Part shown: positions 29,969-35,384 of the stretch, one piece after another
Numbering within the stretch: position 1 is the first letter of the stretch
How the letters are laid out: each line of letters begins with the position of its first letter
Source: an uncultured Bacillota bacterium
Lineage (GTDB): Bacteria > Sysuimicrobiota > Sysuimicrobiia > Sysuimicrobiales > Segetimicrobiaceae
NCBI GenBank assembly: GCA_963804645.1
Contig: CAWDRG010000009.1
Coordinates: 992,001 to 1,056,000, forward strand
DNA: 64,000 bases
Reading direction: 5' to 3'
Position numbers and translations under genes: made by a program
Notes under the pieces: model-generated
What the model was told of the DNA's origin: nothing
What the model saw: the letters and a program-made list of their open reading frames with translations, nothing else
The model's database searches: none

Positions 29969-31099
29969 CTAGGCGGCGAACCGGTCGAGCCGGAACAGGT
30001 TGAGATCCCACCGGCTGCGCCCGTCCGTCGCGAGTTCGGCCATGATCTCCCCGACGACGCTCGCGAACTTGAATCCGTGGCCCGAGAAGCCCGCGGCGAT
30101 GGAGACCTGCGGACATTCGGGATGGACGTCCAGGATGAAGTGTTCGTCCGGGCTGTTCGTGAACAGACACGTCTTGAGGGCCATCGTCGGCCCGTCGGCG
30201 TCGGGAAAGTACAGGCGGATGCCCTCGCGCAGCACCGCCTCGTCCTGGGGGTGGATCGCCCGGTCGACGCGGTCGGCGTCCGTGGCCTCATCCCGGTGGT
30301 GGTACTTCCCGAACTTGAACCCCGGGACGCCGTACTCCGGGAAGCCGTAGAACCGTCCGGCCGGTCCTTCCATATTAAAGACGGGGAACGTGTCGAGCCG
30401 GAACCGCTCCGGCCGCAGCGGCCGCGTCCAGATCAGCACCTGACGCTCCGGCACGGCGAGGCGCGCCAGCGCCGGCACGAGTTTCGACGCCCACGGCCCG
30501 GCCGTCAGCACGAGCTTGGCGGCCGTGTACGCGTGCCGGGAGGTCCGGACCCGCACCCCGCCGCCGTCGGGCTCCCAGGCGACCACCGGCTCGCGGGCGC
30601 GTACCTCGGCCCCCGCGTCGTGCGCGGCATTCACGTAGGCGACGATGGCGCGCTCCGACATCACGAACCCGCCGTCCGGCTGGTACACCCCGACCATGTC
30701 GGACGGCAGGCGGTACCCCGGGAAGCGCGCGTGCAGCGCGTCTGCGTCGAGGGTTTCGTGGTGGAGGTGGTGCAGCTCGCACGACCGCAGCGATCCGCGG
30801 ATGGTGGCGCTGTCCCTGGGGCCCGCGTCGATGCTGCCGGTGATGAGCAGCAGGCGCTCCGACGAGAGGTGCTCGATCTCGCGCCACAGCTCGTAGGCGC
30901 GGCGCAGCAGCGGGACGTAGGACGGGTGCTCCCAGTACGCGAGGCGGATGATGCGGTTCGTGCCGTGCGACGACCCCTGGTCGTGGGGGATGTCGAACTG
31001 CTCGAGGCCGAGCACGCGCAGCCCGCGGCGCGCGAGCTGGTACACGGTCGCGCTGCCCATCCCGCCGACCCCGACCACGATGACGTCGTAGTGCGCCAC
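29969..31099 (-). CDS. solA: N-methyl-L-tryptophan oxidase / monomeric sarcosine oxidase family (FAD)
   Basis: GVGGMGS, GSSHGTNRIIRLAY, TCLFTNSPD.HFILD and GFSGHGFKF; GGAGG RBS favours the GTG at 31099. Confidence 0.88.
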   Translation of the reverse strand: MAHYDVIVVGVGGMGSATVYQLARRGLRVLGLEQFDIPHDQGSSHGTNRIIRLAYWEHPSYVPLLRRAYELWREIEHLSSERLLLITGSIDAGPRDSATIRGSLRSCELHHLHHETLDADALHARFPGYRLPSDMVGVYQPDGGFVMSERAIVAYVNAAHDAGAEVRAREPVVAWEPDGGGVRVRTSRHAYTAAKLVLTAGPWASKLVPALARLAVPERQVLIWTRPLRPERFRLDTFPVFNMEGPAGRFYGFPEYGVPGFKFGKYHHRDEATDADRVDRAIHPQDEAVLREGIRLYFPDADGPTMALKTCLFTNSPDEHFILDVHPECPQVSIAAGFSGHGFKFASVVGEIMAELATDGRSRWDLNLFRLDRFAA

Positions 31100-31258
31100 T
31101 GGCGGCACCTCCAGAGGCCCCGTTTCGGAGCCTACGGTGATGATTCGGTCGCGCTCTACGCGGCCCTGCCGCCTGGTGTTGCTCGGGGGTCCGAGCTGGT
31201 GGCGGACCTCAGGCGCCGGGACACAGCGTCCGGCGGCCTCCGCCGCACCGCAGTCGCA

Positions 31259-33346
31259 TCAGGCGATCGGATGCGGGTTTGTCTCGACCGCACTCGAGCG
31301 TAATCGATCAAGCCGCGGGTTCTTCACTCTGGGGTGTGCGCTGCCGAAGTATATCGGCTGCATATACACTCCGAACGCGCGCACCACACGGATCGGCGCC
31401 AGCTTGACGTCCGGCGAGGTCACGTCGACGGCGGCGGTTCGGATGCCGGCCTCAAGTAATCGGGACACGCAGGTTGAAAGGTTGGCGGGCTCGCGATAGC
31501 TGGAGCGCAGGCTGGCGAGCGAGGCGGGCGCCTCCGTATCGCCGCGAAACGAATCCAGGCCGGTCGCATGCGCGGGATGCACGTAATAGAGTGCATGATC
31601 CAGGCTGGTCACGACATCCTCGTTCTTCAGAACGTCGCGATGCCTGCCGTCTCGCATCAATCGGCGCATGTACGCGCCGTAGTGGCCGTGTTCAAAGACC
31701 GCTCGCTGCAACGCGATATCGATATCCGGGTGAGTCCCGAGTCCGATAGTGACACCGGGCCACGAATGCCCGTCACCTAATCCGAGACAGACACACGTGG
31801 GATGGCGCGTGCCCACGTCGAGCACATACAGTTCCGTGGTTGCGCCCAGACGCTCAGTGTCCCGCAACGCCTGAGACGTGGCGTGATCGCAACCATCTTC
31901 CGCAACGCGCCGACCCGGGCGTCGCGCAAGCCAGAAGAGCATGAACGCATCACGCTCAATCAACTCGTACAGCGCGCGCAACGCTGCGTCTTCGAGGGTC
32001 GTACCGGCAGCGAGACCGCTACTCGTCGTTTGGCAAAAGCGTTCGTCGGCGGCGACCGGAAAATTCATATATGTTGCGAGCGCGGGGACCTGCACCAGTT
32101 CGTTCGTGTCGAGCCAATGCCCGGGGGCCCACAGCATGCGCCGGTCGGGGTCGAAGCGCGAATACGGAAACCCGGGTCGTGCATACACCGCATCGTCGTA
32201 CAAAACCAGCCAGCGCGGATCGAACGCCCGGTCCGCCAGCGTGCTGAATGGCGCGTACGTGAGTGTAGATACGTCCCAGAGCGACGCGGCGTACCGCTCG
32301 AGACCTTCTCCCAACGCACTGCGAATCGCATCCTCGCGGGTGGCACCCTTGCCCTCGCCATTGAAACTCGGACGCAGACCGTGTCCGTCGCGGTACGGAG
32401 CCATGACGACGCTGCTGCAGGACGGCACGACCGCTGTGTCGGTCCCGTCGCCGTCGTAGAGCAGCACTCGCCGCACGAGCCCGGCCCGAGGATCGGCGAG
32501 CAGCCGCAGCTCTTCCGGGACGTGCAGCGAGTGCGTCAATGACGCGAGTTTTGACGGACCCACTATTGCTGCGGCCCCGCCGCACGTCTCGCACCAGGGC
32601 ATCGGCAGCACCGAGTGCAGCGTAGAGATTTCGTCGCCTTGGATGACGACGCATCCGTAGGCCGCGACATCGGGATAGCGAAGCGCAAGGAGCACGTTCT
32701 CGGCGGCGACGCGAGCTGCAACGGGCTCCTCCAGGGCTCGCGGGTGGCTTGCGCCAGAGATTGAGTCGAACAGGCGCAGTCTGCAGCAGTTCCAGCAGGC
32801 CGTGTGCATCGGGATAGCCAAAGGCCCGTAGAAGACTTCCGAGCCGTGCCTCCAGATTGGCATCGATCGAAGGCGGGCTTGGTGGATGTGTCGCACCAGC
32901 CGCAGCGCATCATGAACATCCAGACCGGAAAGGTCGATGATTGCGAACGCGCTGTCCGCCGCCGTTTCGCGCGCGCGGATCCCGAACCCAACCAGGTGAT
33001 CCATCACGCGGGTCGTCAACGCGGTCTGCCGGGGCGCCCACACAGAGGCTTCGTCATCGGACGACGCGGTATGCGCGGTCTGAGCCGAGGATATCCGGAC
33101 GATATCGGCGTCCTCGAGTTGACGACCAAGAACGTCAACCCAGTCACGTGAGTAAGGAAGATCCTCCCCGCGTATCTCGCCTGCGTTCCCGAGCGCGGGG
33201 AGGACCTCGAACATAAGACCATGCGCTGAATCCTTGTTTAGGCGAAAACACCCCTTCGACGACGAAACAATCGCACCGTCGCGCGTCGCCGCTATCCGGA
33301 CGTTGGGCGCGAGGCGAATGCGATTGCTATCCGCCTCTGGCGCCAC
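31259..33346 (-). CDS. Fused RRE / E1-like (TOMM C) / YcaO cyclodehydratase-type protein, 695 aa
   Basis: YcaO ATP-binding motifs GKG..SALGEGLERY, TSSGLAAG and ALYELIERDA; Pro-rich C-terminus PHPIA; E1-like region with GP....TACWNC and PWCETC Cys pairs; N-terminal RRE-like beta/alpha segment. Confidence 0.88.
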   Translation of the reverse strand: MAPEADSNRIRLAPNVRIAATRDGAIVSSSKGCFRLNKDSAHGLMFEVLPALGNAGEIRGEDLPYSRDWVDVLGRQLEDADIVRISSAQTAHTASSDDEASVWAPRQTALTTRVMDHLVGFGIRARETAADSAFAIIDLSGLDVHDALRLVRHIHQARLRSMPIWRHGSEVFYGPLAIPMHTACWNCCRLRLFDSISGASHPRALEEPVAARVAAENVLLALRYPDVAAYGCVVIQGDEISTLHSVLPMPWCETCGGAAAIVGPSKLASLTHSLHVPEELRLLADPRAGLVRRVLLYDGDGTDTAVVPSCSSVVMAPYRDGHGLRPSFNGEGKGATREDAIRSALGEGLERYAASLWDVSTLTYAPFSTLADRAFDPRWLVLYDDAVYARPGFPYSRFDPDRRMLWAPGHWLDTNELVQVPALATYMNFPVAADERFCQTTSSGLAAGTTLEDAALRALYELIERDAFMLFWLARRPGRRVAEDGCDHATSQALRDTERLGATTELYVLDVGTRHPTCVCLGLGDGHSWPGVTIGLGTHPDIDIALQRAVFEHGHYGAYMRRLMRDGRHRDVLKNEDVVTSLDHALYYVHPAHATGLDSFRGDTEAPASLASLRSSYREPANLSTCVSRLLEAGIRTAAVDVTSPDVKLAPIRVVRAFGVYMQPIYFGSAHPRVKNPRLDRLRSSAVETNPHPIA

Positions 33347-33530
33347 CGGCAGCGGGACCGGTTGCTCCGGCGCTTCCTGCCTCGCTGAGCACTTTCAGGG
33401 CTTTCATGAAGGTCTCGCCACACGGCTCGCATTGATTGCATTCCATGCACTGGAAGCGCCTTGCGATGATCGAACTGATGGTCGCCAGGGAGTCGACGAT
33501 CTTTTCCATATCGTACTGCTTTCCCGGCAT
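33327..33530 (-). CDS. Small Cys-rich peptide (67 aa), putative YcaO substrate / RiPP precursor
   Basis: GGAGG 6 nt upstream of the ATG; own promoter; CMECNQCEPC motif; 3' end overlaps the YcaO start by 20 nt. Confidence 0.75.
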   Translation of the reverse strand: MPGKQYDMEKIVDSLATISSIIARRFQCMECNQCEPCGETFMKALKVLSEAGSAGATGPAAGGARGG

Positions 33531-33633
33531 AGGTCGCCTCCATTGGGCATGATAGTCGTCCTCGAGCGCGAAACGCTAGCTGAGCCTTTGGGACACCGAG
33601 AGGAGCACTACGAGACAAGATCGTTACACAGCC

Positions 33634-33677
33634 ATTGTGGGGATAGCGGTTGAAGGGGTCAACCCTCAAAAGGTCAA
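33634..33677 (-). promoter_or_regulatory. Sigma70-like promoter with overlapping palindrome, driving the peptide-YcaO unit
   Basis: Minus strand TTGACC (33662-33657), 17 bp spacer, CACAAT (33639-33634); a second TTGACC at 33677-33672; imperfect palindrome TTGA.GG-N6-CC.TCAA at 33650-33669. Confidence 0.55.
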
Positions 33678-33992
33678 TTACGCGGTCGCGAACGATAGCA
33701 GGAACCTGCCTGATAACTATCCCGTCGCGGCGACGAAGATATCTCGCCCCTGTTCGAACCGCCGATCGGGCCCGGATAGGTGATCTTAGCGACCGTGTTT
33801 CGGCCCCGTTCGGCGGTCGGCGTCGTCGTCATCGGATTGATCCGCGAGCGGCGCGAGGCCGGTATCTCGCCGTCGGCACTCAGGCAGGAATCGTGATCGG
33901 CGCGGCCCAAGGGGATGCGCGCGGCGGTCGACCGGGTGCGGATGGGCGCCGGTCGCGCGTCGATGCGAATGATCCCTACGCGGGGTGTGCGT

Positions 33993-35384
33993 GTGGCCGA
34001 GGTCGACAGATACGATGCGATCGTAATCGGATCCGGGCAGGGCGGAAACCCGCTCGCGGAAGCGTTGGCCGGAGCCGGCCGCCGGGTCGCCATGATTGAA
34101 CGGAAGCACGTCGGTGGCACCTGCGTCAACGAGGGCTGCACCCCGACGAAGACGATGGTGGCGAGCGCCCGGATCGCGTATCTCGCCCGCCGCGCGTCGG
34201 ACTACGGGGTGCGCGCCGGCACCGTGACGGTGGACATGACGGCGGTGCGGCGCCGCAAGCGCAGGATCGTCAACCTCTGGCGGAGCGGGAGCGAGCGCGG
34301 CCTGAAGAAGGCGGCGGGCCTGGACCTGATCCGGGGGGAGGCGCGGTTTGAGGGGCCGCGGCGCGTCGCGGTGGCCCTCTCGCGCGGCGGCACGCGCGAG
34401 CTGGTCGCGGACCAGATCTTCATCAACGCCGGCGCGCGGCCGGCGCGGCCCGCGGTCCCGGGGCTCGAGACCGTCCCGGTGCTCGATTCGACGTCGATCA
34501 TGGAGCTCGGGGTCCTTCCGCGGCACCTGCTGGTGCTCGGCGGCGGCTACATCGGCTTGGAGTTCGGGCAGATGTTCCGGCGATTCGGCAGTGCGGTGAC
34601 GATCGTCCACCGCCACGGGCGCCTGCTCGATCGGGAAGACCCGGACATCGCCGACGCGATCGAGGGCGTGCTGCGCCAGGACAAGGTGAAGCTCGTGCTG
34701 GACGCCCAGACGCTGCGGGCGGCGCCGGGGCCGGGGCGGACGATCCGCCTGACCGTGCGCGCGTCAGGGGCCCGGTCGCCGCGCACGCTCACCGGCTCCC
34801 ACCTCCTCGCGGCCACCGGGCGCGTGCCCAACACCGATCGTCTCAACGCGGCGGCCGCCGGCGTCGAGCTCGATGCCCGCGGCTTCGTTCGCGTCAACGA
34901 GCGTCTCGAAACGACCGCGCCCAGCGTGTACGCGCTCGGCGACATCAAAGGCGGGCCGGCGTTCACCCACATCTCGTACGACGACTTCCGCATTCTCGAG
35001 ACCAATCTGCTGCGGGGCGGGCAGGCGACGACCCGCGACCGATTCGTGCCGTATACCGTGTTCACGGACCCCGAACTGGGCCGGGTCGGTCTCGGCGAGA
35101 CCGAGGCGCGCGCGCAGGGGCGCGCGATCCGGGTGTTTTCGATGCCGATGCGGCGGGTCGCGCGCGCGGTGGAGATGGACGAACCGCGGGGGACCATGAA
35201 GGTGGTCGTGGACGCGCGGTCCGGGCAGATTCTGGGGTGCGCGGTCCTCGGGATCTTCGGCGGCGAGCTGATGTCCCTGATCGAGGTCGCGATGATGGGC
35301 GGCCTGCCGTATACGGCGCTGCGGGATGCGACGCTCGCCCATCCGACGCTCTCGGAGGCCTTCAACAACCTGTTCGACCGCTAG
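33993..35384 (+). CDS. Flavoprotein disulfide reductase (mercuric-reductase-like / RclA-like; lacks the MerA C-terminal Cys pair)
   Basis: GSGQGG, redox-active [25 protein letters not shown] and HPTLSE. Confidence 0.88.

Follow-up and report, generated by a model that had tools for sequence, protein, structure and literature searches.

A window of 64,000 nucleotides from an uncultured Bacillota bacterium (assembly GCA_963804645.1, contig CAWDRG010000009.1, positions 992,001 to 1,056,000) was found to carry a self-contained, horizontally acquired two-gene module, composed of a 67-residue mini-protein with a cysteine-bearing loop and, directly downstream, a 695-residue enzyme which by predicted fold and sequence motifs is of the fused azoline-forming cyclodehydratase type. 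We favour, with moderate confidence, a reading in which the enzyme carries out ATP-dependent thiazoline formation on this dedicated cytoplasmic mini-protein, which would be neither cleaved nor exported. Azoline- and azole-forming YcaO enzymes are known, with few exceptions, from clusters of several genes whose products are variable antibiotics or toxins released by the cell. The pair is the smallest possible version of such a system, one substrate and one enzyme, kept as a conserved unit from Actinomycetota to Pseudomonadota, with a substrate that evolves more slowly than its enzyme.

The pairing of the two genes holds in both directions. We collected 14 genome-contig loci with a full-length-type relative of the enzyme (36-57% identity), from Actinomycetota (Thermoleophilia, Solirubrobacterales, Acidimicrobiaceae, Jatrophihabitans and others), from Paraburkholderia and further Burkholderiales and from Rhodanobacteraceae, including a Luteibacter isolate; one further enzyme cluster is labelled Verrucomicrobiota. 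The peptide open reading frame (ORF) lies immediately upstream of the enzyme in all 14 of these close loci. Conversely, a metagenome scan seeded with the peptide alone returned 28 loci, of which 25 carry the enzyme directly downstream according to tblastn. A 26th pair, L107, was recognized by eye from an N-terminus that lines up with that of locus L011; it had escaped tblastn only on account of an enzyme that belongs to the divergent type seen in Rhodanobacteraceae. The remaining two contigs stop 47 and 2 nt past the peptide gene. An earlier reading of the same letters, hereafter the first-pass annotation, had proposed a stripped-down, two-gene, thiazoline-forming system, a proposal supported here in its main points, and had named the lack of a similar upstream ORF in close YcaO homologues as a refuting outcome; the opposite was observed, a peptide being found upstream of the enzyme in 14/14 enzyme loci, and an enzyme downstream of the peptide in 26/26 peptide loci with room for one.

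No third gene accompanies the pair consistently. Among 135 flanking ORFs of the 14 loci, no Pfam family occurs in more than two loci, and these flanks hold no SagB/nitroreductase, no TfuA and no recurrent protease or exporter by Pfam, an S8 match being present in L004 only. When ORFs of at least 60 aa from 25 loci, the window included, were clustered by all-against-all BLAST, only the peptide, the enzyme and internal shadow ORFs recurred in more than eight loci; after these, the most frequent independent cluster, a generic ABC ATPase, occurs in 4 of the 25, in positions that differ. The host genome (96.8% complete) has no TIGR03605 SagB-type dehydrogenase and no TfuA (PF07812), and holds one YcaO and one copy of the peptide gene. 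When five other host genomes were checked, two proved to have a SagB-type gene over the cut-off, either at a distance from the pair or on a separate contig. The description of the system as stripped down to two genes is thereby borne out, only these two recurring across 25/25 loci and the pair forming a clean insertion relative to a genome of the same genus (see below), and the accompanying suggestion of trans-encoded maturation is disfavoured by the distribution of SagB-type dehydrogenases. Redox- or metal-related genes occur within a few kb of the pair in some loci (L007:8391-10328, L008:9680-12289, L002:2655-3809, L012:6982-7587 and L011:4212-5177), encoding an animal-type haem peroxidase, a DyP peroxidase, a P450, a glutathione S-transferase, flavin mononucleotide (FMN) reductases and a cation-efflux protein; as none is found in more than two of the 14 loci, they constitute at most a faint functional hint.

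Both genes of the pair lie on the minus strand. The mini-protein gene, encoding the presumed substrate, occupies 33327..33530 and its translation is identical, letter for letter, to the one first proposed; the enzyme gene spans 31259..33346 and begins with a GTG located 17 nt ahead of the peptide stop codon, so that the genes overlap by 20 nt. A GGAGG ribosome-binding site at 33537..33541 (minus strand) stands 6 nt ahead of the peptide ATG, and both ORFs are present as had been claimed. The start codon is in register in 42 of 42 related loci, with a GGAG-type site upstream in nearly all. The promoter assigned to the pair is another matter: a single sigma-70-like candidate exists at 33634..33662 (minus strand; TTGACC, a 17-nt spacer and CACAAT), some 100 nt ahead of the peptide ATG, with 9 of 12 positions matching, but shuffled versions of the region yield 0.6 +/- 0.8 matches, and on its own the match is within chance. 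The candidate sequence is also kept in the near-identical loci L082 and L083. Besides the ribosome site, the upstream regions of 43 loci share no common motif of the operator or riboswitch kind, and Rfam returned only a sub-threshold microRNA match. In a peat metatranscriptome library, one 211-nt contig extends over the peptide gene (33358-33568) with one difference, which is a weak hint of expression in which DNA carry-over is possible; the metatranscriptome contigs are of low depth and cover 33358-33568 only, making the gap over the enzyme gene uninformative.

The peptide is conserved to a degree not usual for the precursors of peptides that are made on the ribosome and modified after translation (RiPPs). 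It belongs to no Pfam family and to no meaningful NCBIfam (June 2026 release) family, a weak NCBIfam match (E 0.036) being of no value, and neither it nor the enzyme was matched by PADLOC, which covers anti-phage defence. That the ORF is more than a chance feature is indicated by its coding signature: over a 36-codon core, identity is 0.73 at the first codon position, 0.85 at the second and 0.49 at the third (14 sequences, 91 pairs; L012, a variant missed by the pattern, was excluded, its ORF being intact). In an alignment of 39 sequences, S19, R25, E30, C31, N32, C34, P36, G38, F41, M42, L45 and G52 are invariant. The candidate modification sites C28, C31, C34 and C37 fall within loop codons 28-38, (C/T)-M-E-C-N-Q-C-E-P-C-G, at 33417..33449 (minus strand): C28 is Thr in 4 of the 39 sequences and never any other residue, and C37 is Gly in one. 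Across all loci, the C28-to-Thr replacement appears in three separate lineages, namely the L005/L104/L105/L109 group, L010 and L011. AlphaFold2 places a helix at residues 8-28, a loop at 29-36 and a second helix at 37-52, with modest confidence (predicted local distance difference test, pLDDT, 63), so that the cysteines, at Cys-x-x spacing, would lie in a loop between two helices, followed by a disordered and variable tail. Past residue ~53, both length and sequence vary among the 39 homologues, which makes the terminal Gly-Gly of the window's peptide incidental; a C-terminal tail of the ThiS/MoaD type was rejected on this ground.

Over 23 loci (253 pairs), residues 1-53 of the peptide share a mean identity of 66%, compared with 47% for the whole enzyme, 29% for its N-terminal domain, 36% for the E1-like domain and 57% for the YcaO domain, and in 249 of the 253 pairs the peptide surpasses the enzyme in conservation, a feature that the first-pass annotation did not note. 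It therefore behaves as a small protein with a conserved function of its own, unlike the variable cores that are typical of RiPPs, and is suggestive of a modified mini-protein, so far undescribed, working inside the cell. Other leads on the peptide were set aside. The ESM Atlas gave no usable feature match, and its structure rows comprised two-helix hairpins of a generic kind, none of them belonging to a family that passed the threshold. A profile search of the PDB with the peptide alignment turned up a likeness to zinc-finger knuckles (C-x-x-C-G-x-x-F) that is non-significant (E 0.42 and 0.89) and was discarded. In a 168-aa protein, P0274, from a 45.6-kb metagenome contig, the peptide's second half, starting with the M-E-C-N loop, is read in frame with the enzyme N-terminus. 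Substrate and enzyme may be naturally fused here, or the record may stem from a frameshift, a sequencing error or faulty gene calling; being single, it was not used.

The enzyme is assigned to its class by sequence motifs and by predicted fold, which agree. Its YcaO domain (residues 332-655; 31382..32353, minus strand) matches PF02624 with an E value of 9.3e-62 and 209.6 bits against a cut-off of 25.7, over profile positions 2-320 of 325. The ATP-binding motifs SxxxExxER and ExxERD, the two CxxC pairs and the PHPIA end reported by the first-pass annotation are all present and, across 30 aligned full-length members, invariant, the last in the form PHPxA. The invariant positions include the acidic ATP/Mg motifs of the YcaO domain (S343, E347, E350, R351, E461, E464, R465 and D466), the stretch G330-E-G-K-G334 and the Cys pairs C184/C187 and C252/C255, which belong to an E1-like domain of the ThiF/MoeB/MccB fold (residues ~96-270; 32537..33061, minus strand). 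Fused C-D cyclodehydratases have a Pro-rich extreme C-terminus of the PxPxP type. Here, the C-terminal P-H-P-I-A tail (residues 691-695; 31262..31276, minus strand) has P691, H692, P693 and A695 invariant in 30/30 members, its final residue being Ala and not Pro; among 23 loci, the tail is PHP(I/L)A in 21 and PPPLA in L003, the frame of L009 being broken. As for the profile checks proposed earlier, PF02624 and TIGR03604 (SagD-family cyclodehydratase) are over their cut-offs, the latter being matched by 30/30 family members at E <= 0.01 (best 6.4e-74), but TIGR03882, the leader-binding/E1-like model, stays below threshold (27.2 vs 36.9 bits).

A word-indexed search yielded 151 relatives at E <= 0.001; among the best 120 of these, 93 clusters show 45-99% identity, mostly ~690 aa long and almost all metagenomic. 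A more distant tier of ~700-830 aa bears a ThiF (PF00899) signature besides, and some of its members, from Sorangium, go under the NCBI name 'TOMM precursor leader peptide-binding protein' (TOMM, thiazole/oxazole-modified microcin). An exhaustive HMMER search of 1.84 billion representatives returned 264 proteins at E <= 1e-30. Two kinds of gene-model irregularity were observed. The public gene call P0001 (99% identical, 651 aa) begins at a Met equivalent to ORF residue 45, a start which is probably too far downstream, as it drops N-terminal strands (R-L-A-P-x-V-R...G-C-F-R; window 33215-33346, minus strand) that are found in 30 aligned homologues. In two loci from long-read-derived metagenome-assembled genomes, the enzyme frame is broken, into three overlapping ORF pieces in L014 (6032-8050) and with an altered C-terminus in L009 (6106-8023); the peptide ORF upstream is intact in both, and the enzymes are either pseudogenes or homopolymer assembly errors.

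AlphaFold2, run on the 30-member alignment, produced a confident enzyme model (mean pLDDT 86.2, predicted template modelling score 0.87), whose top Foldseek match is the cyanobactin heterocyclase LynD (4v1v, E 3.3e-34), followed by TruD and MusD. Alignment with VIA-align gave 35.3 for LynD (root-mean-square deviation 4.5 over 551 aligned residues), 32.4 for MusD and 31.4 for TruD; stand-alone archaeal YcaOs and McbD scored 31-33 over the YcaO domain only, and MccB, MoeB and ThiF 11.4-12.4 over model residues of about 42-257. These matches, to fused heterocyclases as well as to the separate E1-like and YcaO proteins, confirm the E1-like/YcaO fusion. The N-terminal domain (residues ~1-95; 33062..33346, minus strand), a putative leader-binding part with four strands and then two helices, is modelled with its strands at residues 9-37 and its helices at 38-53 and 68-79. 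Most structural matches begin at model residue 42-46, and the first ~45 residues are poorly covered.

The mechanism that we propose starts from a first gene encoding a cytoplasmic helix-loop-helix mini-protein of 60-75 residues and a second, translationally coupled gene whose product would combine an N-terminal docking domain with E1-like and YcaO domains in the build of a cyanobactin heterocyclase. The enzyme would dock on the conserved N-terminal helix of the mini-protein, and its YcaO domain, using ATP, would activate the backbone carbonyl before C31, C34, C37 and usually C28 of the loop; attack by the thiols, with loss of water or phosphate, would yield up to four thiazolines at a three-residue spacing. 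As no dehydrogenase, protease or exporter goes with the pair, the product would most likely be uncleaved, unoxidized, thiazoline-bearing and kept in the cell. Thr is the other residue that such enzymes cyclize and is a poor metal ligand. The Cys-to-Thr replacement consequently favours a modifiable nucleophile over a metal ligand at this position. Prediction of the enzyme-peptide complex gave a median score of 0.56 (runs of 0.66, 0.39 and 0.56), the best of three controls reaching 0.00, with a contact agreement among runs of at least 54% and a partner pLDDT of at least 42. Of 157 solved complexes, 116 reach the mark for this score, as do 2 of 215 mismatched pairs; passes with a score no higher than 0.60 comprise only 18 of the 157 and both of those mismatched pairs. 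The prediction lends weak support to the pairing, and the score may reflect memory, since a like complex, LynD with its substrate, has already been solved. As to role, one may speculate that the thiazoline nitrogens and the side chains of the invariant loop Glu and Asn provide a metal-binding or redox site. A bolder version of this idea, in which the loop, turned into a row of thiazolines, makes the mini-protein a genetically encoded, siderophore-like chelating centre that acts inside the cell and is traded among soil bacteria as an accessory trait, we regard as rather unlikely.

Several points weigh against thiazoline formation on a retained mini-protein. The chemistry is attributed to the enzyme through family membership, and the pass on TIGR03604 is narrow (222.6 bits vs a cut-off of 219.25). 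Conservation of the peptide over its whole helix-loop-helix, unlike that of usual RiPP precursors, would also fit a folded partner protein, and four Cys within ten residues could bind a metal or an iron-sulfur (Fe-S) cluster unmodified. C37 is preceded by Pro. Unoxidized thiazolines are prone to hydrolysis, for which reason a stable azoline end product is not assured. The complex prediction is, as said, weak. Docking raises a further difficulty, as the N-terminal domain is the least conserved part of the enzyme (29%), in contrast to the 66% of the peptide that it should bind. Its strands and two helices are compatible with a RiPP recognition element (RRE), but the assignment is putative and unconfirmed, residues 1-100 matching no Pfam family even at E 10 in any of 11/11 members; of the RRE-E1-YcaO architecture initially described, it is the E1-like/YcaO fusion that stands by fold.

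Among the alternatives, one retains the substrate and changes the chemistry, with the YcaO enzyme cleaving the backbone at the expense of ATP in the manner of MusD, perhaps after a transient ring, or installing a thioamide or an amidine. MusD is among the closest structures and, according to PMC10885120, uses ATP to break a peptide bond, but the segments on either side of the loop equal it in conservation, which speaks against their removal by such a cut. The nucleophile residues, invariant except for Thr as the sole replacement of Cys, point instead to cyclodehydration, neither the host genome nor the flanks of the 14 loci contain a TfuA, and the E1-like fusion is typical of azoline formers according to portions of PMC4603692; we therefore hold another YcaO chemistry to be unlikely. 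A chance ORF or an annotation artefact, for which one could invoke the abundance of spurious ORFs in high-G+C DNA and the promoter match within chance, is already refuted by the complete two-way association, the codon-position signature, the 66% identity across phyla and the conserved ribosome sites, and its probability is next to nil.

Two further explanations are disfavoured. The pair might make an ordinary secreted azole or azoline antibiotic, akin to the linear azol(in)e-containing peptides (LAPs), with its dehydrogenase, protease, exporter and immunity genes elsewhere in the genome. A sporadic accessory distribution is typical of competition genes, the precursors of microcin B17, helicobactin and coryneazolisin are nearly invariant in the pages of PMC4603692 that treat them, and SagB-type dehydrogenases do exceed the cut-off in two of the five other hosts, far from the pair. 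Set against this, the 96.8% complete host genome has no such dehydrogenase and three of the five other hosts have none over the cut-off; the module entered by itself between two genes of housekeeping type; across 25 loci there is neither a recurrent exporter nor a recurrent protease; and the peptide, with no evident signal sequence or double-Gly leader end, is conserved across phyla over its whole folded length, which leaves secretion quite improbable. To a similar degree we doubt that the mini-protein, binding a metal or an Fe-S cluster, merely assists or regulates an enzyme whose true substrate is another protein. Its conservation above that of the enzyme would fit such a role, as would a Cys spacing that recalls cluster and zinc motifs (the zinc-knuckle likeness being non-significant at E 0.42 and 0.89), and YcaO enzymes do act on full proteins, such as ribosomal protein uL16 (PMC13063428, in part). 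Yet in three lineages Thr takes the place of the first Cys, a position at which His, Asp or a different ligand never appears, the data offer no second candidate substrate that is conserved, obligate adjacency with translational coupling is the standard arrangement of precursor and enzyme, and the enzyme already has an invariant four-Cys site of its own in the E1-like domain.

The case for mobility of the module is based on its insertion, its G+C dip and its sparse distribution. Relative to a genome of the same genus (G002), in which the flanking homologies end 224 nt apart, they end 2913 nt apart in the window, and the extra 2.7 kb of DNA consists of exactly the pair and its upstream region (31099..34010, no strand assigned). 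G+C content is lowered within this segment (56-67% vs 69-77% around it). The flanking genes encode a DAO-family FAD oxidoreductase and a pyridine-nucleotide disulfide oxidoreductase (window 29969-31108 and 33915-35384; L110); as they are direct divergent neighbours in the same-genus genome, they represent native context and fall outside the cassette despite their redox annotation. Neither terminal repeats nor mobile-element genes were found at the insertion ends, and the surrounding repeats are short and at chance level. The enzyme was detected in 0 of 60 relatives from the same genus, family or order at E <= 1e-50, and in 1 of 151 sampled genomes of the genus of the Paraburkholderia host. In a maximum-likelihood tree of 22 enzymes, which leaves out L009 and L014 with their broken frames, the clades are taxon-coherent (Rhodanobacteraceae, Burkholderiales and several Actinomycetota groups). 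Cross-phylum mixing was thus rejected, and the tree gives no direct proof of recent inter-phylum transfer; with such clades, transfers between phyla look old or rare, and the scattered occurrence suggests that, within lineages, the pair has been gained and lost repeatedly.

The module is rare yet widespread in soil and peat bacteria, and two cultured isolates, a Paraburkholderia and a Luteibacter, hold the pair. DNA near-identical to window 31259-33700 was detected (28-71% of sampled words) in eight runs from two studies labelled peat metagenome, and in the metagenome contigs L082 and L083 the peptide gene is 93% and the enzyme gene ~92% identical; the runs richest in this DNA may come from the very sample that gave the window. 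Runs from other habitats, with small shares, were not used. In run X2, a DNA contig joins position 32911 to 33719, skipping the 807 nt that hold the peptide gene and the enzyme N-terminus (side 113 nt, depth 8.5), which could be a deletion variant in the population, a chimeric contig or DNA of another organism. If the chemistry is confirmed, azoline rings would become a post-translational modification of a functional intracellular mini-protein, and the pair would provide a compact, portable enzyme-substrate combination with which to study and engineer leader-guided heterocyclization.

With respect to known systems, full-text literature searches, together with sections of a 2015 TOMM survey (PMC4603692) and of a 2025 RRE survey (PMC12710340), supplementary tables aside, yielded no published or curated account of such a peptide family or of a two-gene E1-YcaO module. 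The nearest enzymes are the cyanobactin heterocyclases LynD, TruD and PatD (PDB 4v1t/4v1u/4v1v, 4bs9), from which the present enzyme differs in being ~80 residues shorter, mostly at the N-terminus, and only 17-22% identical to the solved ones. Cyanobactin pathways comprise PatA/PatG proteases, a PatE-type precursor with repeated cores and genes for macrocyclization or prenylation, none of which recurs in the flanks of the 14 loci or in the 25-locus clustering; instead of repeated cores, there is a single invariant loop with a conserved helix on either side. In the muscoride pathway, MusD (PDB 7u58) likewise acts within a full cyanobactin-type cluster, whereas the present system has two genes and no sign of cleavage. 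LAP systems such as microcin B17 (McbBCD) and streptolysin S (SagBCD) include a B-protein dehydrogenase, an exporter and immunity genes, all missing here, and LAP and heterocycloanthracin cores are Gly/Ser/Cys-rich, of low complexity and C-terminal, in contrast to a short loop inside a conserved and probably helical protein. Heterocycloanthracin and sonorensin have only the Cys-x-x spacing in common with the peptide, which has no docking-scaffold or dehydrogenase neighbours, and no NCBIfam precursor model matches it at E <= 0.1.

A likeness of another kind is offered by systems with a conserved target or precursor. McrA, which acquires thioglycine through YcaO-TfuA, is a conserved protein kept in the cell. 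The uL16 thioamide YcaO of Pseudomonadota also has a conserved, cell-retained protein target, as described in part of PMC13063428. The McrA and uL16 YcaOs are, however, stand-alone or TfuA-assisted and place thioamides on large housekeeping proteins, unlike an E1-like fusion that has a dedicated 67-aa partner and no TfuA. The precursors of pyrroloquinoline quinone (PqqA) and mycofactocin (MftA) remain constant because their products have a conserved cellular job. Bufferins, for their part, are peptides whose Cys-derived heterocycles chelate copper (PMC12452194, in the portion on these peptides). PqqA, MftA and bufferins depend on other enzymes (radical S-adenosylmethionine enzymes and MNIO) and on larger clusters, and bufferins are exported, so that the likeness is one of evolutionary behaviour only. 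Compared with all of these, the module combines a known enzyme class with a new substrate family, a new minimal organization and an unusual pattern of conservation.

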